A DNA stretch of 64,000 nucleotides from Squalus acanthias (Eukaryota). Location: assembly GCA_030390025.1 (NCBI GenBank), contig CM059432.1:57600001-57664000 (forward strand), in the 5' to 3' direction. Every line of letters begins with the position of its first letter. Within the stretch, counting starts at the first letter, position 1. Of the stretch, positions 7,295 to 60,872 are shown piece by piece. The notes under the pieces are model-generated. The model was not told where the DNA came from. It saw only the letters and a program-made list of their open reading frames with translations, and made no database searches. The position numbers were made by a program, and so were the translations under genes.

Positions 7295-10032
7295 CATTCT
7301 ACATACTAGAATGGTTCCGGGGATGAGGGATTACAGTTACGTAGATAGACTAGAGAAGCTGGGGTTGTTCTCCTTGAAGCAGAGAAGGCTAAGAGGAGAT
7401 CTGATAGAGGTGTTTAAAATCATGAAGGATTTAGGTAGAGTAAATAAAGAGTTTGGCCCAGAAATTGGGCTACTTACCGCCATGAGTTACCGCCGCAATC
7501 CTTGCGAAAAATGGCAGCCGCCATTCTAACGCCCTTCTCTGGTGCGGCACTCGGCAGCCATCATTTTGGTGAGGGCCTTAGCACTGCCAACAGCAGCGCT
7601 GTCCCTGGAGATGCAAATATGGAGAGCGTGACATCAGTCGGCGTGCAACGTTGAGTTAACATCACGCTCTGCGAACTTGGACCTTAGCGCTGAGTTTAGC
7701 GCTGGGTCCTAAGCTCACTCTGAAAAGCGAGCATGCAGCAGACTAACAGATGCTGTCAACACTTCTTAAAGGGACACACACATCTTTCAGCTAAGTTTGC
7801 ATTTAAGCTTTTGGACTGGATTTTTTATATTTTGTTGAAGTAGTGGCTTGCTGCAATACATGTTAAACATTTTTTAAGTGTGCAGGGAGTGCAGGGACTG
7901 CTGCTGGATGCTTGCAAGGCCTCGGATAGTAAAGGAAGGCCTCTGAGAAGACAGAAAATGTTGGAAATATTCAGCAAGTCAGGCAATATCCATGGAGATA
8001 GAAACAGAGTTCACATGTCTCAGGTTAAAGATGCTGTCTGACTTGTTGAGTATTTCCAGCATTTTGTGCTTTTATTTCCAATTTACAGCATCCGCTCACA
8101 GAGGGAAGAGGAAGACGCAGAAGAGGAAGACGCAGAAGAGGAAGAGGCAGAAGAGGAGGAAGTAGAAGAGGAGGAAATAGAAGAGGAGGAAGCAGAAAAG
8201 GAGGAAGCAGAAGGAAGGAAGCAACCAAGTCAGCCCCTTTCTGGCCAGGATATCTAGGGTGGAATCATCCGCCTGTGGTCCCAGTGACCACAACCCCAAT
8301 TCCCTCTGTTACTGACTATCACAGCATCCTCTTGGCCACAATGCCGAAATATAAGCCACCACAATGCTAAGATTCCAATCCAACTTTATACATCTATCCA
8401 TCCAATATTACATCAAGAAATCAACTAATCACCTTTGTGCTTTCCCTTAGTGACTGTTTTGTGTGTGCTTTTGACTATCCTACTGATATCACACAGTGCT
8501 ACCCCAGTGGCTGCAGCAAGGCTGGTGGAAGGCTGCTGACTTTCAATGGGGGCCACTGCAAATGGCCTTGCAGGTTGACCTTGAGGAGCTGGTGGCTGGG
8601 AGTGTGAAATCGAGTGACAGTGTTTCTTCTTCTTCTTCTTCTCCTCTCCCTCTTCTTGGTCAATCACTGGCTGGGTAGGCTGGATTTCTTGAGTGTCTGA
8701 AATGAGGAAGGCACAAGGGTGGAGTTGTGGTGAAGGGAGGGCGGGAAAGCAAGAGGTCCATGCAAGAAGGAGGATAACGTATGAGGATACAAGCATCTTG
8801 TTTCCTTTCAGTCCCGCCGCTGGCCAAGGGCTCAGCCATGCCCCTGCCAAGAATGGCCAGCACCATCTCCTCCAAGGGGGTGAGGTGAGGCTAGGAATGG
8901 GAGGTGTGCCTCATGTTTGGTAGAGACTGTTGGTAGGTGAGTAATTGGAGGGGGGGGTGAAGTTGTGCATTAAGCAGTAAGTGAGGCTAGTGGTGCAGTT
9001 GGTAGGAGATGGCTTTTGAAGATGCATTCACTGACCTTGACCACTGGTCTGAGGTCATGAAGCTTCTTTGGGCACTGGAGCCAGAGGGTGAGGGTGACAC
9101 TGCTGGCAGTAACGGCCTCGGTGATGTGGTCCCACATCCTTCTTTCTGGAGGGCCTCTTGGCCCCTGTGGGTAGAGGACCTCTCTTGCAGTGTTGTCCTC
9201 CTGCACAAAGCTGGAGTGCTGCATGCGAGCCCCTGGGTAACCCTTCCCTGGCTTGCTGAGCCATTTGTGTTAGTGCTAAAGTACTTTTCCCATTCTTTTA
9301 GGTGCGGAAGGCAATTCAGCTTTAAGAGCTGAAGACTTCCAGTTGGGAATTCTTTTTAGTGTTAATTTTCTTTTCAGAAGGCAGTTGAGCTGTAAGCGCT
9401 AAAATTTTTTAATGATTTTTTTTTTCATTTTAGAAGGCAGTTCCTCTTTAAGGGACCAAAGTGCTCTCTAAAATGACAGCCTTGCTTTAAGATAAGGTTG
9501 TTCTTGCTGCAATGACACTACGGCCACGCTACATTGGCCTCCTCCAGGACTAATGCCATGAAAATGGCGTTGCACGGTAAGTTAAGTGCTGGGCTAATGT
9601 TAATTAGAAACCAGCGCCAATTTATCGGTCCTGCCAGCGCTATCAATTTTGGTGGCCATTAACTGCGGCCTGCAGTCGCACAAGCAGGTTTTTAGCAATC
9701 TCGAATTTCTAGAACATACTCTTTCAAATGACTAAAGGGTCAATAATGAGAGGGCACAGATTTAAGGTGATTGGCAAAAAAACAGAGGCGACATGAGGGA
9801 AAACATTTTTACGCAACGAATGGTTAGGATTTGGAATGTGCTGCCTGATAGGGTGGTGGATACAGATTCAATAGTAGCCTTCAAAAGGGAATTGAATAAA
9901 TATTTGAAGGAGAAAAATTTGCAGGGATATGGGGAAAGAGCGAGGGAGTGGGCCTAACTGGATTGCTCTTTGAAAGAGCCAGCGCAGACCCGATGGGCCG
10001 AATGGTCTCCTTCTGTGCTGTACTGATTCTAT
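7295..10032 (+). mobile_element. CR1 3' fragment split by a Harbinger insertion (7295-7451 and ~9716-10032)
   Basis: MVPGMRDYSYVDRLEKLGLFSLKQRRLRGDLIEVFKIMK...RVNKE resumes after 9715 with RGHRFKVIGK... and a CR1 3'UTR. Confidence 0.85.
7455..9715. mobile_element. Internally deleted PIF/Harbinger element with acidic tract (+), Myb/SANT relic (-) and captured PLE end
   Basis: Left TIR GGCCCAGAAATT and degenerate right AATTTCTAGAAC. Myb-like REVLYPQG...MWDHITEAV...WLQCPKKLHDLRPVVK|gt at ~9033-9224 (-). Glu-rich tract at 8100-8220. Inverted sister copy at 29215-30285. Confidence 0.8.
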
Positions 10033-11324: not shown

Positions 11325-11735
11325 TATGGGTATTTCTAAGGGCATATCTCTCTATTTGGAGGAGAAGGAAAAGGTGGAGGAGAATCACAGGATGCATACC
11401 ATATAGGTATTTTTGCATTCTTGGCACTCAATTAGGACCCATTTTATGCTATCACCTATGTTGCATGGCCAGTACATAAATAGAAAATCCTGGAAAGACT
11501 CAGCAGTTCAACCAGTATTGGATAAATTAATGTTTCAGGAGCAATCTTTCATCAGAAGCCAGGCTATTGTATCTGGACAAGACTGAAGACACCTGCATGA
11601 AAAGACTACAACTCCCAAAGAAGACCATTACAAAACTATGCACACTCCTGCAACCAGATTCAGGAAACCCTTCCAGGAGAGGAGCAGCTCTTTCAATGGC
11701 TCTGAAAGTAACAGCTGCATTGAACTTCATATGGC
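11325..11735 (+). pseudogene. Harbinger (HARBI1-like) transposase N-terminal relic
   Basis: YLDKTEDTCMKRLQLPKKTITKLCTLLQPD...ALSMALKVTAALNF resembles the N-terminal helical region of PIF/Harbinger transposases. Confidence 0.7.
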
Positions 11736-12494: not shown

Positions 12495-14010
12495 CCTCAG
12501 CCAAAGGGGCTCTGCTGCAGAGGGGCCACACTCTACAGCCCTCCATGGTGGTCAGCAGTTTGGTCAGGTTGTCTGGATAAAGTGGGAGAATGGAATAGAG
12601 TCCTTACAGGAAGCGGGGTGGAAGGAAGTGTAATCAAGGTAGTTGTGGGTGTCAGTGGGCTTATAGTAGATATTGGTTGATAGCATATTCCCGGAAATGG
12701 AGATGGAGAAGTTGAGGAAGGGAAGGGTAGAGTCAGAGCTGACCATGTGAAGGCAAGGGAGGGGTGGAAATTGGAAGCAACGTTGATGAAATTTACCAGT
12801 TCGGGGTGAGAGCAGGAAGCGGCACCGATACAGTCATCAATGTATCAGAAAAGGAGGTGAGAGAGGGACCTGTGTAGGATTGGAACAAAGAATGTTCCAC
12901 GTAGCCCACGAAAAGGCAGGCATAGCTAGTACCCATACGGGCTACCATAGCAACACCTTTTACTTGGAGGAAGTGAGTGGAGTCAAAGGAGAAGTTGTTC
13001 AAAGTAAGAACAATTTCAGCCAGGCGGTGGGTGTTGGTGGATGGAAACTGGTTGCGCCTCCATTCAAGGAAGAAGCAGAGGGCCGGCAGGCCGTGCTGGT
13101 GGGGGTTGGAGGTGTAGAGGGTCTGGACGTCAATGGTGAAAAGGAGATGTTTAGGGCCAGGAATCTGTAATACTGTTAAAATGTGGAGGGCGTTGGAAGA
13201 GTTGCGGATGTAGGTGGGAAGAGACTGGAGAAGGGAGAAAAAATAGAGTCGAGATAGGAAGAAATCAGTTCTGTCGGGCAAGAACAGGCTGAAACGATGT
13301 ATCTACCAGGGCAGTCCTGTTTGTGGATCTTGGGAAGCAGATAGAAGCGGGCTGTGTGGGGTTGGGTGACTATGAGGTTGGAGACTGTGGAGGTATGATC
13401 TCCGGAGGAGATAAGGTCAGTGACGGTCTGGGAAACGATGGTTTGATGTTCAGTGGTGGGGTCATGGTCCAGGGGGAGGTAGGAGGAGGTGAGAGAGAGT
13501 TGGCGTACAGACTCTGCAAGGTAGAGATCCGTTTGCCAAACAACAAGCGCCACGCTTGTCAGCAGGTTTAATGACAATGTCATGGATTGACCTGTGAGAA
13601 TGGAGTGCTGCAAGTTCAGAGGGAGATAGGTTAGAGTGAGTGAGGGGAGCAGAGAAATTGAGATGACCGGTGTCATGCCGGCAGTTCCCAATGAAAAGAT
13701 CTAGAGAGGGTAAGAGGCCAGAGGGAGGGGTCCAGGTGGAACAAGAATTCTGAAAACTGGAGAAAGGGTTCGCTGTGCAGGGGCAAGACTCCTGGCCAAA
13801 CAAATGGGTGCGGAGATGAAGGTGACAGAAGAAGAGTTCAGCATCGTGCCGAGCTCGAAATTCATTGAGGTGGGGGCTTAAGGGAATAAAGCTAAGGCCT
13901 TTGCTGAGGACTAATTGCTCGGGATCAGAGAGGGGAAGGTCAGAGAGGATAGTGAAAACACGGCAAAAGGTGAGATTGGAAGGATGGATGGGTCGGGGGA
14001 AAGTGAAGGG
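12495..14010 (-). mobile_element. Penelope-like element, RT region, frameshifted
   Basis: IVIKPADK, FYLLPKIHK..PGRYIVS, LFTIDVQTLYTS, NNFSFDSTHFLQVKGVAM, LPFL...YYKPTDTHNYLDYTSFHP spread across several frames. Confidence 0.93.
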
Positions 14011-17476: not shown

Positions 17477-17662
17477 AGCCCTGATTTTAGTCTAATCGGC
17501 CTGGCGGGAAAGTGCCGGGTATAAATCTGACGCCGTTTTACAGCCTGCTCGATTTCCCGCTCTATTGACTATAATGGAGCATAAAATCGGGTGGGTGTAA
17601 AACGGGCGACCGACCCGAACCCACCCCAATCCCGCTCGGCCGGTTAGGTTAAAATCAGGGCT
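17477..17662. mobile_element. Small MITE
   Basis: 13-bp perfect TIR AGCCCTGATTTTA/TAAAATCAGGGCT with an imperfect TAG/TTG TSD. It interrupts the CR1 reading frame. Confidence 0.82.
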
Positions 17663-17776
17663 TTGGGCTTTTCAACCTTGAATGAGATGTCTAAGAGGTG
17701 ATCTTGGAGAGAGGCATACAAGATTGTAAATGGTAAGGAAATGGTAAATCTGGAAAATGACTTTAAATTAAACTGT

Positions 17777-18287
17777 TCGGGGAACACTTCAGCAGTCAAG
17801 GACATTCAGCCTCGGATCTGCGGGTTAGCGTTCTCCAAGGCGGCCTTCGAGACACACGACAACACAAAATCATCGAGCAGAAACTGATAGCCAAGTTCCG
17901 CACCCATGAGGATGGCCTCAATAGGGATATCGGGTTCATGTCACGCTACAGAACGTGACTCGACATCGTTGTCTGTCTTTCCAGTTTAAAAAAAAACACC
18001 AAAAAAATAAACACAGAAAAAACCACAAAAAAAACTGCAGACAGCCGAATTTGACACGTTGGACCCCCTGTGACACATCTCATTGTCTTGGCTGTGCTCT
18101 TGGTGTGTCTTTGATAAGGACACCTTCCCTGAAAGATTGTATCTCTGCAGTTTCTGTGTTTATATACTGTGAAATATTGTAGATTCACCCATTGTAACTT
18201 TACCTGAGGAAGGGGCGACAGCTCCGAAAGCTTGTAATTTTAAATAAATCTGTTGGACTATAACCTGGTGTTGTGCGACTTCTCATT
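17777..18287 (+). mobile_element. 5'-truncated Penelope-like element (GIY-YIG C-terminus + 3' end) with 15-bp TSD
   Basis: GEHFSSQGHSASDLRVSVLQGG...IEQKLIAKFRTHEDGLNRDIGFMSRY. TTTAAATTAAACTGT is duplicated at 17762-17776 and 18288-18302. Confidence 0.9.
18200..18237 (+). ncRNA. Minimal type I hammerhead ribozyme motif (PLE-associated)
   Basis: TTAC-CTGAGGA-A-GGGGC(GACA)GCTCC-GAA-AGCT-T-GTAA: CUGANGA and GAAA cores, stem I TTAC/GTAA, 5-bp stem II, palindromic AGCT stem III. Confidence 0.8.
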
Positions 18288-20955
18288 TTTAAATTAAACT
18301 GTGAGAGTAGTCGAAGGGGCCACAGGTTTAAACTAGCAAAAGGCAAATTTAGAACTGATATCAGGAAGTTCTTCACACAAAGAGTGATCAACACGGAATG
18401 AACTCCTGCCGAGTGGTGGAGTGAAAACTTCGGAATCATTTAAGAATCAGTTGGATGCTGCAATGAGGGGACTTTAGGGTGATGAAATGGGCTGAATCAA
18501 TACTGGAGTGTTGTAATCCTATCTTTGATCCGCCCTCCCTTTGAGCTTGGGTCCCATTTGGGAGCGTAGGACTGGTGAATTTACCCATTATGCAGCTGAT
18601 ACTGATACCGATTGCTTACTGAGCTGAATACATCTGTCTGCTAAACACCCCCTCCACTCACCCTAATATAGAGTGCATTATCATCATGAAGCACGTGGCG
18701 CTGTACTTTCTTCATGGCAGTGGCGTGGGACTTCTGTCTACCCTTTCAATCCTGCCGCAACCCTGCCACATTTTCTTCAGTCAGGGATCATTTGCAATGC
18801 GCCAGCAGGGTGGCTCTTGGCAGAATCCCTGCCACCAAAAGGGTGCAAAATCTTGGCGTTGCTGCAGCAGCAGAAGTGGCAGCTGGGAAGTTAAAGGGAC
18901 ATAAAAGCCCCAAGGAGGAGAAAGGAAAATTCCTTTTTAGGCCTCAGCCGAAACCAAGGCCAAAAAGTTGGCTAATACAAGAGACCACTAATAGACCCTC
19001 TGCCTCCGTGTCAGTCCATCGGTGCCATTACTGCCACTACGCCAAGCCTATTGGCAACTTCCACCAGGCGGTCCCAGGGAACGACAATAAGAGGGGTGGA
19101 TGGGAGGGAAATGGGTTGAAAGGTCAAGCACCAACCACTTCTGGCATTTAATTATGACAGATGGGGTGGTGAGGGGTGGTCAGTGACGGCCTTGGTGGGG
19201 GATAGGGAGAGGGAAATTTAACTTGGGCGGAATGCGGCAGTAGGACTTACTGCCAAGCTCTGGTTCCCTTTCTCTCATAATCCTGCCTGAAATAGAATGG
19301 AACTGCAGAGGAAAATCTAACCCATGATTTAGTAGCTAAACTGTGAACTGGTGAAAGTTGGTAATTGATGGATAAACAAATTTCAATGTTAATTAGACTT
19401 GGGATTCAAATTCAGAGTCTCACAGAGCTAATTCTCCACAACTGAAACTAGAAGGTCATCATTAACATGATAATTTATCAAAGGAAGCTTCCATCCATAT
19501 CTTCCATGCAAGAATGACTTCATCAGGTGTATGAGACATTTTATTTATAATTCATAGAGGCTGAGTTCTTCTTAATACTCTGTCCTGCTCACATACAGCA
19601 GACACTTCAACCACTGACATTTCCTGAATAAAGATCAATTTTTAGTCTGTTTAATTTAACAGTAGATGTGAAAGTTATTTCTGGAAAATAAAATGTCACA
19701 TCCTATTTGCAAGTCAGTAAATTTACAATCATAATAAAACTTAAAGGTTCACATGATTATTCACTACCTAGCATGGAACTGTGCAGATTCTTTGATCAGT
19801 GTTGAGTTAGTTGATCTCACCCAGGTTGGCAGTAGAATGTTACAATTGGTCTCAATACTCTGGGACTAGGAGGGAAACAAATTGAAGGTTTAATTGGTAT
19901 TGTTCTGCTAATTGCAGGTATGACAGGAAACTTCCCATGGTTTATTTTAACTGTGTTTTATTTGGCTTTTCCAACGATGTATCTACGTTTTATGGATTGG
20001 ATGCAAATTTTATTAATAATCTTGTTCCATTTACTTACAGTGATAGCTAGCTGAAAATCAGACCATCAGACCATGCTTGGTACTCTTATCTCTAGGTAGA
20101 AGTTTCTCAATTGTTTATACAGCACCTGCAATCTGTATTCTCTGCGACCTATTCACCTTACCTGTCAATTAACTTTTCTTGTAATAAAGCCAGGTGATAT
20201 TGCCTGAGATCTGCCATGGCAGGCTTAACTCCCCCCATGCCAGGTGCTAGATAGACACAGCACAGCCAAAAAGTCAAGGCCTCAATCTGCCCGGTTTTGC
20301 TGCCCCTGACCATTAGCATGGCTCAGACACACTCCTGGCACAAGCTTGCTCCTGGGAAGGCAACAGCCAGAAGGTCTCAAGATTCAAAGTTTCTGCTGGA
20401 AATGTAAAAGATTTACTTACCTCGTGTGCTACTTCTGTTCTGCTTACCCCTCAGAGGTTGCGAACTGAGGAGGGTCCTAACTAAAGCCTCACCACCAACA
20501 TTTTGGGTCGTCCCTGCGTATGGCCGCCCCATGAACATGCATATCTGAAATTGAGGTGGAATGGCCGTGAATGCTCCCTCCTGCTTCATTTCTCTAGCAA
20601 GGTGTGGTTTGTGCCTATTGCAGACAACAGCTCAGGTTGGTCCACTGGGAAAAATCCCAGAAATCTCAATGCAGCATCCTGGGAGCAGAAACCTGATGCC
20701 CTCTTTTCCTCTCTGTAGCACCTTGGAACTGAGTGCTCGCCAGGTGCCATGATGAAGAAAAATGAGCCCTCTAAAATTTACACAGTATGAGAGACATCTG
20801 CCGAAAAAATGTTAAGAGCTCACATAAATTGTTAATGTAAAGAAGTGGAGTGCTCTCAGTATGCAATAGCATGAAGCATAAAGCACAAGAGTCAAAGCCA
20901 TGTGCGTCAATAGCCTTACTTGTGATGCTACATCAATACTAGTCAATGAGCCACT

Positions 20956-24579: not shown

Positions 24580-26660
24580 GGAGAAGGTTGGAAATTGCAG
24601 GTAGAGCCTTGAAATAGCTAGGAATGGATGAAGGTTTCAGCGGCAGGCTGAGGGAGCAGCAGTAGTGAACCTTGTGCAAGACTCGGTTTATTGGGAGGTA
24701 GTTCCAATAGATGGCTCATGTGAGATTTTGTGGCACTTTAAAGATGGAGGCAGAGAAGAAGTGATCAAAATTTTAATGAGGTCGACATGCAGCCACTCTT
24801 GAACGAAATACAGCAAAGAAGGGGGCCAAAGATAGATCTGGAGGTAATGGTCTGGGGGTGGGAAGAGAAGCCATTGCTGACAATGTTCTGGAATCTGATC
24901 TGAAAAGTAAGAGTGGAACCAAGTGAGGATATTCCCACTGAACTGGACAACGGAGCAGAGGTGTGGGAGGAGGATGGTGTGGTCACCCAAGGCTGTAGGA
25001 AGGTTGAGGAAGTCAACTAACAAGAGGACCAGGAAGGAAAGTTGTGGGGCGAGGGGGGCGACCAGGAAGGAAAGTTGTGGGGCAAAGGGGGGGGGGGGGG
25101 GGGGGGGGGCGGTGACCAGGAAGGAAAGTTGTGGGGCAAGGGGGGGGGGGGAACCAGGAAGGAAAGTTGTGGGGCGAGGGGGGGGGGGAACCAGGAAGGA
25201 AAGTTGTGGGGCGAGGGGGGGGGGGGGACCAGGAAGGAAAGTTGTGGGGCGAAGGGGGGGGGGGCGGTGACCAGGAAGGAAAGTTGTGGGGCGAGGGGGG
25301 GGGACCAGGAAGGAAAGTTGTGGGGCAAAGGGGGGGGGGGGGGGGGGGCGGTGACCAGGAAGGAAAGTTGTGGGGCGAGGGGGGGGGGGGGGAACCAGGA
25401 AGGAAAGTTGTGGGGCGAGGGGGGGGGGGGGGACCAGGAAGGAAAGTTGTGGGGCAAGGGGGGGGGGGGAACCAGGAAGGAAAGTTGTGGGGCGAGGGGG
25501 GGGGGGGGGAACCAGGAAGGAAAGTTGTGGGGCGAGGGGGGGGGGGGGGACCAGGAAGGAAAGTTGTGGGGCAAGGGGGGGGGGGAACCAGGAAGGAAAG
25601 TTGTGGGGCGAGGGGGGGGGGGGGACCAGGAAGGAAAGTTGTGGGGCGAGGGGGGGGGGGGGACCAGGAAGGAAAGTTGTGGGGCGAGGGGGGGGGACCA
25701 GGAAGGAAAGTTGTGGGGCGAGGGGGGGGGGGGGGGCGGTGACCAGGAAGGAAAGTTGTGGGGCGAGGGGGGGGGGGGGGACCAGGAAGGAAAGTTGTGG
25801 GGCGAGGGGGGGGGTGGGGGGGACCAGGAAGGAAAGTTGTGGGGCGAGGGGGGGGACCAGGAAGGAAAGTTGTGGGGCGAGGGGGGGTGGGGGGGACCAG
25901 GAAGGAAAGTTGTGGGGCGAAGGGGGGGGGGCGGTGACCAGGAAGGAAAGTTGTGGGGCGAGGGGGGGGGGGGGGGGACCAGGAAGGAAAGTTGTGGGGC
26001 GAGGGGGGGGGGGGGGGGGCGGTGACCAGGAAGGAAAGTTGTGGGGCGAGGGGGGGGGGGGGGGACCAGGAAGGAAAGTTGTGGGGCGAGGGGGTGGGGG
26101 GGACCAGGAAGGAAAGTTGTGGGGCGAGGGGGGCGACCAGGAAGGAAAGTTGTTGGGCGAGGGGGGGGGGGGACCAGGAAGGAAAGTTGTGGGGCGAGGG
26201 GGTGGGGGGGACCAGGAAGGAAAGTTGTGGGGCGAGGGGGGGGGGGGGGGCGGTGACCAGGAAGGAAAGTTGTGGGGCGAGGGGGGGGGGACCAGGAAGG
26301 AAAGTTGTGGGGCGAGGGGGTGGGGGGGACCAGGAAGGAAAGTTGTGGGGCGAGGGGGGGGGGGGACCAGGAAGGAAAGTTGTGGGGCAAGGGGGGAGGA
26401 GGGAGGTGGGGGAGCCAGTAGTTTAGTCAGAATGGGATCAAGGGAGAAGGAGTTGGACATGGGGTGGGGGGGCGGAGAGATAGAAGAGAAATGAGAAAAG
26501 ACACAGGTTTAGGGCGAGGGGAGGATGGGGCAGGTTTGGTTCAGTGGACAAGGGGAAGAGGTAGAGGCAGCTGAAAAGGATAGTCTCAATCTTACTAATA
26601 AAGAAGTCCATGACCTTCTTGAAAAAAAGCTCCAAAATTTCTCCTGTAACTGAGGCAATC
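24580..26660 (-). mobile_element. L2 LINE ORF2 relic containing a minisatellite expansion
   Basis: MDFFISKIETI, SFSLDPILTKLL...QLSFLVLLLVDFLN and DHTILLPHLCSVVQFSGNILTWFHSYFSD are L2-type motifs flanking the array. Confidence 0.75.
25027..26395 (+). repeat. Minisatellite, ~35 copies of ACCAGGAAGGAAAGTTGTGGGGC(G/A)A + variable poly-G
   Basis: About 35 units counted by eye. Linkers are G-runs with variants GCGGTG, GTG or GA. Confidence 0.97.
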
Positions 26661-29214: not shown

Positions 29215-30285
29215 GGCCTAGAAATTCCACATCGTAAACAACCTGCTGGTGCCACCGTGGGCCGGTGTTAATGGCCGCCGAAATTGATGGCGCTGACAGG
29301 ACGGGTAAATTGGTGCTGGTGGCTAATTAACATTACTGTCACTGCCAGCAGTGTTGCCCCCACCACCTGGCACCAGTGCCCAAAGAAATTTCATGACCTC
29401 AGACCACTGGTCAAGGTCAGTGAATGCATCTTCTAAAGCCATCTCCTATCAACTGCACCACTAGCCTCACACACTTCTCAATGCACGACTTCACTCCCCT
29501 AATCACTCACCTACCAACAACCTGTACCAAACACGAGGCACACCTCCCATTCCTAGCTTCAACTCACCCCCTTGGAGGAGGCATTCTTGGCAGGGGCATG
29601 GCTGAGCCCTGAGCCAGCAGCGGGGCTGAAAGGATAAAAGATGCTGGTATCCTCATACGTTATCCTGCTTCTCGCATGGACCTCTTGCTTTGCCGCCCTC
29701 CCTTCACCACAACTCCACCCTTGTGACTTCCTCATTTCACACACTCCCAGCCAAGGTCGACCTGCAAGGCCATTTGCAGTGTCTCCCACTGAAAATCAGC
29801 AGCCTTCCACCAGCCATGCTGCAGCCACTGGAGTAGCACTACGTGATAGCAGTATGATAGGCAAAGGCGCACACAAGACAGTCACTAAGGGAATACACAA
29901 AGGTGATTAGTTGATTTCTTGATGTAATAATGGATGGATAGATGTATAAAGTTGGATTGGAAAATTTGTTTTGTGGTGGCTTTTATTTAAGCATTGTGGC
30001 CAAGAGGATGCTCTGATGGTCAGTAACAGAGAGAAGGTAAGGTGTGGGTTAAATATTGAAAGGGGAATTGGGGTTGTGGTCACTGGTACCGCAAGCGGAT
30101 GATTCTATCCCGGATATCCTGGCCAGAAAGCGGCTGTCTGGGTTGCATCCTTCCTTCTGCTTCTTCCTCTTCTGCACATTTCTCTTCCTCTGCGAGCAGA
30201 TGCTGTAAATCTGAAATAAAAGCACAAAATGCTGGAAATACTCAGCAGGTCAGGCAGCATCTCGACCTGAGATGTGAACTCTGCT
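29215..30285. mobile_element. Inverted, further-deleted sister of the 7455-9715 Harbinger element
   Basis: Starts GGCCTAGAAATT. ORF 29641-29910 nearly duplicates part of ORF 8425-8850 (MLVSSYVILLLAWTSCF...). Confidence 0.85.
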
Positions 30286-30287
30286 TC

Positions 30288-30515
30288 AGGTCAGGCAGCA
30301 TCTGTGGAGAGAGAAACAGGGTTAATGTTTCAGGTCGATGACCTTTCGTCAGAACTGGAAAAAGTTAGAGATGTAACAGATTTTGAGCAAGTGTAGGGGC
30401 AGGAAAATGGAGGAGGGGAAAGAAGAACAAAAAGGGAAGGTCTGTGATAGGGTGGAAGGCAGAAGTGATTAAATGACAAAAGGGATGATTGTACAAAGCA
30501 AAAAGAGATGGTAAT
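30288..30515 (-). mobile_element. PLE 3' end with hammerhead motif (30320-30356)
   Basis: About 10 differences from 40567-40795. Minus strand reads CTGACGA-A-AGGTC(ATC)GACCT-GAAACATT. Confidence 0.85.
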
Positions 30516-30767
30516 TTCACATTAAGTTTGAGAGTGACTTGCCTAAGTCCAAAACGTGCTAGTAAGAGTACAGAGAACAGGATAGTTAGGCTAAATACGT
30601 GGCTTGAGCAGTGGTGTAAGAGGGAGGGTTTTAAATTTTTGAGGCATTGGAACCAGTTTTGTGGTAGGTGTGACCTATACAAAAGGGACGGTCTACACCT
30701 GTGCAAAGATGGAACTGATGTTCTCGGGGTAATTTTTGATAAAGCAGTTCGGGAGCATTTAAACTAG
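30516..30767 (+). pseudogene. C-terminal part of CR1 ORF1 (SGNH/GDSL esterase-like domain), 5'-truncated
   Basis: NRIVRLNTWLEQWCKREGFKFLRHWNQF...LYKRDGLHL; DxxH block V of SGNH hydrolases, directly upstream of ORF2. Confidence 0.85.
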
Positions 30768-30841
30768 TATGGCAGGGGGCTAGAAACCTATGTAGTGAAA
30801 TAGAGGAAAGTGAAAGGCAGACAGAAATAAATGGTAAAAGG

Positions 30842-33709
30842 GTGAGGAACAAAAAACAAAGGGCCAAACTAATTCATAAAAAATGTGAGCATAAAAAAAA
30901 CCTGAGGGTTTTATACCTTAATGCGAGAAGCATCAGGAACAAGGTAGATGAATTAGCTGTGGAAATAGAGGTTAATAATTATGATCTAATTGGGATTACG
31001 GAAACATGGTTGCAGGGTGAGCAGGGCTGGGAGCTTAACATACAGGGGTATTCAGTATTTAGGAAGGATCGACAAAAAAGAAAGGGAGGAGGGGTAGCAT
31101 TGCTGGTAAAAGAGGGGATAAATGCAATTGAAAGGAAGGATATTAACTCAGTTAATACAGAATCTATATGGGTGGAGCTAAGAAATAGCGAGGGGCGAAA
31201 AACATTAATAGGAGTGGTATATAGGCCTCCAAATAGTAAAATAGAGGTTGGGGAGGGCATCACGAGGGAAATTAGAGAAGCGTGCAATAAGAGCACAGCT
31301 GTCATCATAGGTGACTTTAACTTACATATAGATTGGACTAGCCTAATCAGTAAAAATAATGAGGAGGAGGAATTCCTTGAGTGTTTAAGGGATGGTTATC
31401 TGGATCAATATGTCGAGGAACCAACTCGGGAACAGGCTATATTGGACTGGGCACTGTGCAATGAGAAGGGACTAATTATTAATCTTGTTGTACGGGGACC
31501 CTTGGGTCAGAGCGATCATAACATGATCGATTTCTCACTCGAAATGGAGAGCGAAGAAATTGACTCAGAGACTAAGGTCCTGAATTTAAACAAGGGGAAT
31601 TATGATGCCATTAGACGGGAACTGAGTAGGTCTGATTGGACAACGTTCCTGGGAGGACTGGAGGTAGATAAACAATGGCAAGCATTTAAAGATAGAATGA
31701 CAAAATTGCAAAAATTGTTTATACCAATCTGGCATAAAAGGAAATCTAAAAAGGTGACTCAACCGTGGATAACAGGGGAAATTAGAGACAGCATAAAATC
31801 CAAAGGTAGGGCGTATAAAATAGCCAAAAAAAGCGCCAGAGCGGAAGATTGGGAACAGTTTAAGATAGAGCAAAGGAGGACAAAGGGCTTAATCAAGAGG
31901 GGCAAAATAGCTTACGAAAGCAAGCTGGCGGAAAATATAAAAACTAACTCCAAAAGCTTTTATAAGTATATCAAGAGGAAAAGACTGGTGAAAACCAAAG
32001 TTGGTCCATTGCAGTCAGATACGGGGGAATATATAACGGGAAATAAGGAAATGGCAGACCAACTAAATGCATACTTTGGGTCAGTCTTTACGAAGGAAGA
32101 CACAAAAAACCTCCCTGGGATATCGGGAAAAATAGGGACATTGGCAAAGGAGGAACTGACGCAAATCAATATCTCTAAGGATATGGTGTTAAGGAAGCTA
32201 AAGGGATTGAAGGCGGACAAATCCCCAGGGCCTGATAACATGCATCCTAGGGTACTGAAGGAGGTGGCCCTAGAGATAGCGGATGCACTAAGTATGATTT
32301 TTCAGAATTCATTAGACTCGGGAACAGTGCCCATGGATTGGAGGGTAGCTAACGTTACCCCACTATTCAAAAAGGGGGGTAGGGAAAAAGCAGGTAATTA
32401 CAGACCTGTAAGCCTTACATCAGTTGTGGGCAAAATGCTGGAGTCCATCATTAAGGATGAAATAGCGGAGCACTTAGCAAATGGGGACAGGATAGGACAG
32501 AGTCAACATGGATTTACAAAGGGTAAATCGTGCTTGACTAATCTATTGGAATTTTTTGAGGGAGTAACTGGTAAAATAGATGGGGGAGAGCCAGTAGATG
32601 TGGTGTACCTGGACTTCCAAAAGGCCTTCGATAAGGTCCCACATAAAAGATTAGCATGGAAAATTGAAGCTCATGGGATAAAGGGGAAAGTATTGACGTG
32701 GATAGAGAACTGGCTGTCAGATAGAAAACAGAGAGTTGGAATAAACGGCTCATTTTCTGAATGGCAGGCAGTAACAAGTGGGGTACCACAGGGATCTGTC
32801 CTGGGTCCCCAGCTGTTCACAATTTACATTAATGACCTGGATCAGGGAGTCGGATGCAGCATTTCCAAATTTGCAGATGACACTAAACTAGGAGGGGGGG
32901 TGGGCTCAGAGGAGGAGACCAGGAAGCTCCAGAGCGATTTGGACAGACTGGGTGATTGGGCGGATAAATGGCAGATGCACTATAATGTGGACAAGTGCGA
33001 AGTTATCCACCTTGGGTGCAGGAACGGGAGGGCAAATTATTATTTAAATGGCAATAAATTGGGAGAGGGTGAAGTACAGAGAGACCTGGGTGTTCTTGTA
33101 CACCAGTCACTGAAGGCGAGCATGCAGGTGCAACAGGCGGTCAAGAAGGCAAACGGTATGCTGGCCTTCATAGCAAAAGGGTTGGAATACAGGAACAGGG
33201 ATACCTTGCTGCAGCTGTACAGGGCACTGGTGAGACCACACCTCGAGTACTGTGTACAGTTTTGGTCGCCTCATCTGAGGAAAGATGTTCTTGTCATGGA
33301 GGGGGTGCAGCGGCGATTCACCAGGCTGATACCAGGAATGGCGGGATTGACCTATGAGGAGAGACTATGTAGTTTAGGGATGTACACACTGGAGTTTAGA
33401 AGATTGAGAGGGGACCTCATAGAAGTGTATAAAATTCTGACAGGTCTAGACAGACTAGATGCAGAAGGAATGTTTCCCTTGGCGGGTGAGAACAGAACTA
33501 GAGGACATAATTTAAGGATAAGGGCTAAACCATTTAGGACAGAAATGAGGGGGAATTTCTTCACTCAGAGGGTGGTGAACCTGTGGAACTCATTGCCACA
33601 GAGGGCAGTGTACGCCAGCTCATTAAATATATTTAAGAGGGAATTAGATATATTTCTACAGGCAAAAGGGGTTAAGGGTTATGGAGAGAAGGCGGGGACG
33701 GGATACTGA
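30842..33709 (+). CDS. CR1 LINE ORF2: AP-like endonuclease + reverse transcriptase, uninterrupted 955 aa
   Basis: EN motifs LYLNARS, ITETWL, VYRPP, GDFN and SDHN. RT motifs [17 protein letters not shown] and FADD. 3'UTR and (TATCTATG)n tail to ~33810. True start codon uncertain. Confidence 0.96.
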   Translation: MRNKKQRAKLIHKKCEHKKNLRVLYLNARSIRNKVDELAVEIEVNNYDLIGITETWLQGEQGWELNIQGYSVFRKDRQKRKGGGVALLVKEGINAIERKDINSVNTESIWVELRNSEGRKTLIGVVYRPPNSKIEVGEGITREIREACNKSTAVIIGDFNLHIDWTSLISKNNEEEEFLECLRDGYLDQYVEEPTREQAILDWALCNEKGLIINLVVRGPLGQSDHNMIDFSLEMESEEIDSETKVLNLNKGNYDAIRRELSRSDWTTFLGGLEVDKQWQAFKDRMTKLQKLFIPIWHKRKSKKVTQPWITGEIRDSIKSKGRAYKIAKKSARAEDWEQFKIEQRRTKGLIKRGKIAYESKLAENIKTNSKSFYKYIKRKRLVKTKVGPLQSDTGEYITGNKEMADQLNAYFGSVFTKEDTKNLPGISGKIGTLAKEELTQINISKDMVLRKLKGLKADKSPGPDNMHPRVLKEVALEIADALSMIFQNSLDSGTVPMDWRVANVTPLFKKGGREKAGNYRPVSLTSVVGKMLESIIKDEIAEHLANGDRIGQSQHGFTKGKSCLTNLLEFFEGVTGKIDGGEPVDVVYLDFQKAFDKVPHKRLAWKIEAHGIKGKVLTWIENWLSDRKQRVGINGSFSEWQAVTSGVPQGSVLGPQLFTIYINDLDQGVGCSISKFADDTKLGGGVGSEEETRKLQSDLDRLGDWADKWQMHYNVDKCEVIHLGCRNGRANYYLNGNKLGEGEVQRDLGVLVHQSLKASMQVQQAVKKANGMLAFIAKGLEYRNRDTLLQLYRALVRPHLEYCVQFWSPHLRKDVLVMEGVQRRFTRLIPGMAGLTYEERLCSLGMYTLEFRRLRGDLIEVYKILTGLDRLDAEGMFPLAGENRTRGHNLRIRAKPFRTEMRGNFFTQRVVNLWNSLPQRAVYASSLNIFKRELDIFLQAKGVKGYGEKAGTGY

Positions 33710-40535: not shown

Positions 40536-41205
40536 ATAAAAATAGAAAATGCTGGAAATGCTCAGCAGGTCAGGCAGCATCTGTGGAGAGAGAAACAGAG
40601 TTAACGTTTCAGGTCGATGACCTTTCGTCAGAACTGGAAAAAGTTAGAGATGTAACAGATTTTAAGCAAGTGTAGGGGCAGGGAAATGGGGGAGGGGAAG
40701 GAAGAACAAAAAGCGAAGGTCTGTGATAGGGTGGAAGGCAGGAGTGATTAAATGACAAAAGGGATGATTGTACAAAGCAAAAGGAGATGTTAATGGGACA
40801 AGTAAAGAAACAAAAGATGGGTCTAGAAGTGGTGTCAATGGGAATATCAGAATCATCAACAGCTGCCGTCTGGAAAAATTGGGAGCAGAGGTTATGGTCT
40901 GAAATTGTTGAACTCGATATTGAGTGTAGAAGGCTGTAAAGTGCCTAATCGAAAGATGAGGTGCTGTTCTTCGAGCTTACGTTGAGCTTCATTGGAACAG
41001 TGTAAGAGACCGAAGACAGAGAGGTCCGAGTGGGAGTGGAGAATTAAAGTGACAGGCAACCGGAAGCTTGGGGCCACACTTGAGGACTGAATGGAGGTGT
41101 TCCACAAAGCGGTCACCCAATCTGCGTTTGGTCTCCCCAAATTAAAGGAGACCACATCGTGAGCAGCGAACACAGTATACTAAATTGTAAGAAGTACAAG
41201 TAAGT
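40536..41205 (-). mobile_element. PLE GIY-YIG C-terminus + 3' end
   Basis: CTSYNLVYCVRCSRCGLL...HSHSDLSVFGLLHCSNEAQRKLEEQHLIFRLGTLQP. Confidence 0.92.
40599..40635 (-). ncRNA. Minimal type I hammerhead ribozyme motif, best-preserved copy of PLE family 2
   Basis: Minus strand reads AGTT-CTGACGA-A-AGGTC(ATC)GACCT-GAA-ACGT-T-AACT, with stem I AGTT/AACT and palindromic ACGT. Confidence 0.8.
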
Positions 41206-47330: not shown

Positions 47331-48090
47331 AAATTCTGGAAACACTCAGCAGGTCAGGAAGCATCGAGGAGAGAGAAACAGAGTCAGTTTCGAGTCGGGG
47401 CCCCTTCGTCAGAACTGGAAAAGGTTAGAGAAGAGAGATTTTTAAGCAGGGGCAGGGAGGAGGGGAGGAAAGAACAAAGGGAAGGTCTGTGATAGGATGG
47501 AAGGCAGGAGAGATTGACTGACAAAAGGGATGATGGTGCAAGGCAAAAGGAGGGATAATGGGACAAGTTAAGAAACAAAAGATGACTCTTGATGAGGTGT
47601 GAATGATGATGCAGCATCATTAACAGCTACCATGTGAGAAAACAAGAGAAAAAAATAAAAAATATAAAGAAATACAGGTTATCGTCTGAAATTGTTGAAC
47701 TCGATGTTAAGTTCAGAAGGCTGTAAAGTGCCTAATAGAAAGATCAGGTGCTGTTCTTCGAGCTTACGTTGAGCTTTGTTGGAACAGTGTAAGAGGCCGA
47801 GGACGGAGAGATCAGAGTGGGAGTGGAGCGGAGAATTAAAGCGACAGGCGACCGGAAGCTCGGGGTCACGCTTGCGGACTGAACGGAGGTGTTCTGCAAA
47901 GTGGTCACCCAATCTGCGTTTGGTCTCCCCAATGTAGAGGAGACCGCATTGTGAGCAACTAATACAATATACTAAATTGCAAGAAGTACAAGTAAATCGC
48001 TGTTTCACCTGGAAGGAGTGTTTGGGGCCCTGAACGGTGGGAAGGGAGGAGGTAAAAGGGCAGGTGTTGCATCTCCCTGTGCTTGCACTT
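47330..48090 (-). mobile_element. PLE GIY-YIG endonuclease + 3' end (degenerate hammerhead 47382-47416)
   Basis: FTCTSCNLVYCISCSQCGLLYIGETKRRLGDHFAEH. Confidence 0.92.
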
Positions 48091-49341: not shown

Positions 49342-49710
49342 ACTTTACAGCCTTCCGGACTCAACATTGAGTTCAACAATTTCAGATCATAACCACTGTT
49401 CCTATTATTTCCGACAGCGAATGTTGGTGCTGATTCTGCTATTGCCATTTACTTGTCCCATTACTATCCTCTTTTGCCTTGCAACATCATCCCTTCTCTC
49501 TTGCTGTCCCCCCTATCATAGACCTTCCCTTTTGTTCCTTCCTCCCCTTCCCCTGTTCCCTGCCTCTGTACTTGCTTAAAACCTATTACATCTCTAACTT
49601 TTTCCAGTTCTGATAGAAGGTCATTGACCTGAAATGTTAACTCTGTTTTTCTCTCCACAGATGCTGTCTGACCTGCTGAGTATTTCCACCATTTTCTGTT
49701 TTTATTTCCA
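49342..49710 (+). mobile_element. PLE 3' end (hammerhead variant 49606-49642, core altered to CTGATAG)
   Basis: LQPSGLNIEFNNFRS* followed by the same 3' end as 40536-40900. Confidence 0.88.
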
Positions 49711-60074: not shown

Positions 60075-60872
60075 CATTCCTCGAGCTTCATTAGAATAGT
60101 GTAGGAGGCCGAGGACAGAGAGGTCTCAGAGTGGGAGTGGGGTGGAGAATTAAAATGACAAGCAACCGGAAGCTCAGGGTCACGCTTGTGGACTGAATGG
60201 AGGTGTTCCACAAAGCCAATCTGCATTTGGTCTCCCCAATGTAGAGAAGACCGCATCGTGAGCAGCGAATACAGTATACTGAATTGAAAGAAGTACAAGT
60301 AAATCGCTGTTTCACCTAGAAGGAGTGTTTGGGGCCCTGGACAATGGGAAGGGAGGAGGTAAAAGGGCAGGTGTTGCATCTCCTGCGCTTGCATGGGTAG
60401 GTGCCGTGGAGGGGGAGGGGATGTTGGGGGTGATTGAAGAGTGGACCAGGGTGTCGCAGAGGGAACTGGAATGCTGGGAGGGGAGGGGAAGATGTGTTTG
60501 TAGGTGGCATCACGCTGGAGGTGCCAGAAATAGCGGAGGATGCTTCTTTGAATGTGAAAGCAATGGGTGGAAGATGAGGACAAGGGGGACCCTATCGTGG
60601 TTCTGGGAGGGAGGGGAAGGGGTGAGAGCAGAAGTGCGGGAAATGGGACAGACATAGTCGAGAACCCTGTCAACTATGGTGGAGGGGAATCCTCGGTTGA
60701 GGAAAAAGGAAGACATATCGGAAGCACTGGTATGTAAGGTGGTATCATCAGAATAGATGCGGCAGAGGCAGAGAAACTGGGCAGAATGGAATAGAATGTT
60801 TACAGGAAGTGGGCTGGGAGGAAGTGTAGCCAAGGTTGCTGTGGGAATCAGTGGGCATATAGTAGATAAGCC
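60075..60872 (-). mobile_element. PLE RT-thumb / GIY-YIG fragment
   Basis: FFLNRGFPSTIVDR, CKRRRCNTCP and VYCIRCSRCGLLYIGETK. Confidence 0.9.

Follow-up and report, generated by a model that had tools for sequence, protein, structure and literature searches.

We give a probability of roughly 0.86 to the following reading of positions 18200-18237 in the 64,000-nucleotide stretch of Squalus acanthias DNA analysed here (the window): an intact minimal hammerhead lies in the 3' pseudo-LTR (pLTR) of a truncated Penelope-like copy, cuts only with a partner and is inert alone. The motif is inherited cargo of the element and not a device of the locus. It extends a class of ribozymes known since 2014 by a shark family, and is confirmed but ordinary.

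Structure of the motif

A descriptor search of the window recovered a complete minimal type I hammerhead of 38 bases on the forward strand at 18200-18237. The 5' arm of stem I (TTAC, 18200-18203) leads into the core CTGAGGA (18204-18210), which is followed by an extra unpaired A (18211) between positions 9 and 10.1. Stem II joins GGGGC (18212-18216) to GCTCC (18221-18225) across a GACA loop, and its closing pair, G10.1-C11.1, is G18212-C18225. The GAAA core (18226-18229) shares its last base with the palindrome AGCT (18229-18232), which ends at U16.1 (18232); H17 is T18233, and the 3' arm of stem I (GTAA, 18234-18237) completes the motif, with all parts on the forward strand. Cleavage is predicted 3' of 18233, where an earlier first-pass annotation had also placed it, in agreement with the published minimal-hammerhead consensus.

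That annotation had named both cores (CUGAGGA and GAAA), the stems, the extra A and the palindrome, and the descriptor search finds each of them where it had been placed; the 4-bp stem I is borne out by the TTAC and GTAA arms. Two of its points need qualification. The 5-bp stem II is present, but one of its pairs is a G.U wobble that had gone unmentioned, the other four being Watson-Crick. The AGCT palindrome is present as well, but it leaves no loop III, so that the proposed 'stem III' can form only between two copies of the motif. The motif does end 50 nt before the end of the element, as had been claimed, since the insertion stops at 18287. An AATAAA had been noted just 3' of the motif, and it is there (18243-18248, forward strand), but it occurs in 0 of the 2 distant relatives described below. 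We therefore consider a poly(A) signal tied to the ribozyme unsupported, and the hexamer probably just belongs to the AU-rich flank.

Statistical support and covariation

The descriptor asked for both cores, a stem II of at least 4 pairs, the palindrome and a stem I of at least 3 pairs. It matched twice in the window (at 18204 on the forward strand and at 40631 on the reverse strand) and not once in 60 block-shuffled windows. A minimal hammerhead also occurs in a second Penelope-like family in the window, where it is intact at 40599-40635 on the reverse strand; there the palindrome AGCU is replaced by ACGU and an A-U pair stands at the base of stem II.

Two more distant relatives, L001 and L002, were found among 41 stretches in a metagenome scan by protein pattern alone; none of the 9 pattern matches from a protein scan of viral contigs was a relative. 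Both loci (2/2) carry a hammerhead behind the ORF, at a distance of 278 nt (L001) and 209 nt (L002) from the stop codon; they share the AGCT-T junction of the window motif and differ in their stems. Covariation was assessed across the window motif, L001, L002 and the second-family motif at 40599-40635, the structure being read from these same four. All 42 of 42 cells are paired, and 8 of the 11 pairs have changed on both sides. None of 500 shuffles scored as high, and slid controls were 19-51% paired. The extra base before stem II is invariant in 4/4 motifs, and the invariant positions among the four are those of the catalytic core. Position N7, by comparison, takes all four bases across the window copy, the sister copies, L001 and L002. 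The covariation that the first-pass annotation had proposed to look for is thus seen, in that the stems covary and the core is kept, in a set of four sequences only.

A covariance model built from the three other motifs, with 18200-18237 left out, gave the window motif 38 bits (E 2.4e-9, by a rough calibration).

Could the motif nevertheless be a chance match in AT-rich repeat DNA? Two observations lean that way. Rfam returned 0 matches at the gathering threshold in the 64 kb window and, around the motif at E up to 10, 4 chance-level unrelated matches and no hammerhead family; in addition, the folding energy of the motif is ordinary (z -0.83). Both, we infer, are what would be expected of a 38-nt motif without a stem III. 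A chance origin is refuted by the shuffles, by the positional conservation and covariation in the relatives, and by the match to the leave-one-out model, and we leave it almost no probability.

The insertion and its element

Perfect 15-bp repeats, the two copies of a target-site duplication (left, 17762-17776; right, 18288-18302), bracket a 511-bp insertion at 17777-18287. Besides a SINE pair, these are the only 15-mers repeated 300-800 nt apart in 15-21 kb. Sister copies match to 18290, so that the three T at the start of the right repeat are compatible with both element and target. On the forward strand, the insertion begins with the 5'-truncated 3' end of a Penelope-like ORF (17777-17958; 93% identity to residues 586-642 of the protein P0001), which comprises ~57 codons at the end of the GIY-YIG endonuclease region and runs in frame to a stop codon at 17956-17958. 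The 3' untranslated region or pLTR follows (17959-18287, forward strand), with the same layout in L001 and L002; here the distance from stop codon to hammerhead is 246 nt.

The insertion interrupts a LINE remnant, found at 17690-17761 on its left and 18303-18480 on its right, both on the forward strand. One reading frame of a LINE-type C-terminus spans the two sides, resuming to the right of the insertion, and contigs that skip the insertion are seen for the right-hand part. The remnant had no library match; judging from its peptide, we take it to be CR1-like. A self-inverted, MITE-like insert of ~190 bp (17477-17662) lies in the same LINE remnant, ~100 nt to the left of the insertion.

The first-pass annotation called the insertion clean. 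This holds for its junctions, but the copy is heavily truncated at its 5' end, as can be told from other copies that continue upstream of 17777, and the 3' tail of other copies is absent. Such a copy would have arisen by nicking of AT-rich DNA by the endonuclease, followed by target-primed reverse transcription. Reverse transcription would have begun at the inner of two 3' start sites, leaving no tail, and would have stopped after about 510 nt.

Protein matches were obtained for 18 among 28 candidates; all named ones are from sharks, and the best reaches 93%. P0001 itself is a 643-aa shark protein with an RT domain, a GIY-YIG-like motif and a CX4CX2C linker. This linker is also found in 11 of the 12 relatives checked, and the region that holds it is lost from the window copy. 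The 60-aa piece encoded in the window had no Pfam match on its own, and a further protein, P0004, matches Pfam GIY-YIG (E 2.3e-5). In the available part of Craig et al., a CX2-5CxxC linker between RT and EN marks the Neptune and Nematis clades. The endonuclease remnant ends the ORF, which is the C-terminal GIY-YIG arrangement of the Neptune clade. The element is likely a member of that clade, an assignment that depends on the linker of a relative and not on a tree.

Copy number and sister copies

We aligned contigs of four public runs to 17690-18400. In run X1 the summed contig depth rises to as much as millions inside 17786-18289 and amounts to thousands to tens of thousands in the flanks; the element family has a very high copy number. 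Most of the joints listed (13 of 15) skip the insertion and represent other LINE copies without it. Other copies of the element extend past 18290 by an AC-rich stretch of ~30 nt, an optional tail that is absent here.

Among the differences listed, two fall inside the motif. One is 18208 G>C, at the free core position N7, with 50-66% of the depth in 4/4 runs, and the other is 18217 G>A, in loop II; the listed differences alone do not show that the core is invariant throughout the family. The contigs of run X9 bear the label 'RNA?', which is a guess, so that neither expression nor a cut end can be read from them. In run X6, a loose end before 18222 points to a sister family that shares the 3' half of the motif and has a different loop II, with C for U at core position 4 (a CCGA core start).

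Sequences flanking the hammerhead

A TATA-like box lies at 18161-18166 on the forward strand, 43 nt before the core; the corresponding distance is 39 nt in L001 and 40 nt in L002. TATA boxes have been described in pLTRs (PMC3846280), and we assign the box a putative promoter role, in which case transcripts would be initiated immediately 5' of stem I.

On the other side of the hammerhead, a conserved motif of ~20 nt occupies 18252-18272 (forward strand) and recurs in L001 (1029-1080) and L002 (934-987). Its exact pattern had 0 matches in the metagenome and 0 in the viral contigs. For both L001 and L002, a helix is predicted between the first half of the motif and an AGTCCA word located ~45 nt beyond it (z -3.2 and -1.6, respectively); this word can also be made out by eye in the tail of the shark sister copies. 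Because the words hardly differ, there is no compensatory change in the helix, and the pairing is a prediction only. The copy in the window ends before the tail and therefore cannot form the helix. In Neptune elements, the helix may correspond to the AC-rich stem-loop in which reverse transcription starts in an anole element. By eye, the second half of the L001 motif may also pair further on, as a pseudoknot; the supplement text of the study on PAc, the anole element, makes no mention of a pseudoknot or tail.

One could imagine the Neptune-type end as a three-part module, made up of a TATA box ~40 nt upstream, the hammerhead, and a motif whose pairing with the tail would create a stem, or perhaps a pseudoknot, as the starting point of reverse transcription. 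In that case pLTR transcription would start just 5' of stem I, cleavage would remove a capped leader of ~40 nt, and tail-less copies, unable to close the stem, would be dead ends. This scheme is a speculation built on sequence, and we think it rather doubtful.

Activity of the lone copy

If stem III requires two motifs, the first consideration is whether a partner is at hand. No second copy of the 30-nt core was found in the window with up to 11 mismatches allowed. The only other forward-strand motif at E below 0.01 lies at 49606-49642, 31 kb off, and we rejected it as a partner in cis: it belongs to another family, its core is broken and its stem I is different. Computed energies, which ignore tertiary contacts, put the active dimer fold at -16.9 kcal/mol and two separate monomers at -17.8 kcal/mol, so that the dimer is no more stable than its parts; the AGCU duplex contributes only -2.5 kcal/mol, and the best two-strand fold reaches -26.4 kcal/mol.

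As a cleavage triplet, CUU is slower than GUC. Cleavage by dimers is reportedly treated in work by Lunse et al. In the available text of Cervera & De la Pena 2014 (PMC4209133), single minimal hammerheads (min-HHR) showed no cleavage, and dimers and trimers little. For the anole motif, the accessible parts of PMC11167929 describe cleavage only with the element's protein. With no compatible partner to be found in the window, and in view of the dimer energies and of these published monomer and protein-dependent results, the lone copy at 18200-18237 is probably inert.

In full tandem elements, by comparison, two motifs on one RNA could pair through the AGCU palindrome. The resulting dimer would have a shared stem III of 4 bp and would exchange stem I between the copies; with this pairing, possibly aided by the element's protein, the precursor RNA would be cut. 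The Penelope-like context and the dimer logic put forward in the first-pass annotation agree with the published consensus and with the covariation among relatives.

We see only a slim chance that the lone copy is active, being cut at 18233 through RNA from sister copies in trans or with protein supplied by an active element. The motif has no defect in core or stems, its family is extremely numerous, and the anole motif, in what is available of that study, cleaves once the element's protein is added (PMC11167929). These points are countered by the fold energies, in which the dimer falls short of the monomers and far short of the best two-strand fold, and by the behavior of the motif in 121 nt of context, where even stem I is unstable in the centroid. 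They are also countered by the anole system itself. As far as the accessible text of PMC11167929 goes, insertion by the anole protein depends on RNA 3' of the motif, and no anole RNA reads ended at the cleavage site; the copy here has no tail.

A second alternative concerns the family and not the copy: the motif may be kept for a role other than cleavage in the transposition cycle, such as protein binding or folding for the start of reverse transcription, or simply as a passenger. We regard this as improbable, albeit less so than activity of the lone copy. In its favor, core mutants of the anole motif left insertion in vitro unchanged (PMC11167929, in the part available), and the motif here is flanked by two other conserved features, the TATA-like box on one side and the tail-pairing motif on the other. 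Naiad elements, moreover, thrive without a hammerhead, and authors have suggested that hammerheads may parasitise elements. The invariant positions, however, are those of the catalytic core, with N7 free, as expected from selection on the hammerhead fold. In addition, the same accessible portion of PMC11167929 reports that anole core mutants abolish cleavage and that a compensatory pair partly restores it. We therefore retain the reading of a partner-dependent hammerhead that is inert as a single copy.

Relation to known systems

Minimal hammerheads of metazoan Penelope-like pLTRs, some with the same GAAA-GC-U-U junction, were published in 2014 (PMC4209133, as far as its available text shows). 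All six testable sequence features of that min-HHR consensus are present in the window motif, including the core CUGANGA...GAAA...UH, a palindromic 15.2-16.2 without loop III and a location in a pLTR behind an RT/GIY-YIG ORF. In the portions of PMC4209133 available to us, the likeness extends to the type I topology, the CUGANGAH core, the extra base before stem II, G10.1-C11.1, the absence of loop III with a palindromic 15.1-16.1, the short stem I and the AU-rich flanks. A single 3' copy in a 5'-truncated element is also shared, Table S1 of that paper showing only the 3' motif in 5'-truncated elements.

Among the individual examples in Fig. S3 of the same source, the turtle Chrysemys has the same GC-U-U junction and is also followed by AAUAAA, the rotifer Philodina shares the junction, and the coral Acropora has a GGGC/GCUC stem II, its element being called Neptune in Table S1. 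The stem sequences are family-specific, and there is no shark among the min-HHR examples in the parts available. Our literature search, with subscription journals outside its scope, found no shark-specific report of a Penelope hammerhead.

The Poseidon element PAc of Anolis carolinensis (Frangieh et al. 2024, PMC11167929, again from its available text) resembles the present one in its pLTR hammerhead and AT-rich target. The optional tail of PAc is defined by a pair of sites, in an AC-rich stem-loop, at which reverse transcription can start, and the sister-copy tail here is AC-rich too; the two-start-site model proposed for PAc predicts tail-less copies. PAc, however, is a member of the Penelope/Poseidon clade with an ORF that begins within its hammerhead, whereas 18051-18300 contains no ATG, and a zinc-finger linker of the Neptune/Nematis kind is present in relatives of the window element.

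Retrozymes of the animal non-LTR kind, a subject also of PMC7229834, are described in the accessible parts of a 2026 preprint (bioRxiv 10.64898/2026.07.22.740005). They also carry a type I hammerhead derived from pLTRs, and the preprint reports them in one chondrichthyan. Retrozymes, however, are non-coding tandem units with a hammerhead each. The motif here is a single copy that comes with an endonuclease remnant, and retrozyme identity fails on both counts.

As one of very many in its lineage, the single copy matters little. For the role of these ribozymes in the transposition cycle, a family with a promoter box, a hammerhead and a tail helix is usable material, although an entire element in tandem form would be more useful for it than the truncated copy studied here.

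Other elements in the window

Further copies of the second-family hammerhead, changed in core, palindrome or stems, lie at 30320-30356, 47382-47416 and 11525-11559 on the reverse strand and at 49606-49642 on the forward strand. pLTR-like ends of this family stand head to head in inverted orientation at 7950-8100 and 30190-30290, mirrored between the 8-kb and 30-kb regions, an arrangement that resembles the inverted pLTRs described for Penelope-like elements. A further Penelope-like RT survives as a frameshifted remnant at 12573-13641 on the reverse strand, with about 32-36% identity to P0001, and additional endonuclease-region remnants are found at 41040-41201, 47742-48071 and 60113-60402, all on the same strand. 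The window also contains a G-rich minisatellite at 25009-26440, with a period of about 38 nt and some 37 units, and a 988-codon open frame at 30743-33709 (forward strand) with AP-type endonuclease and RT domains, which represents a near-intact LINE ORF2.
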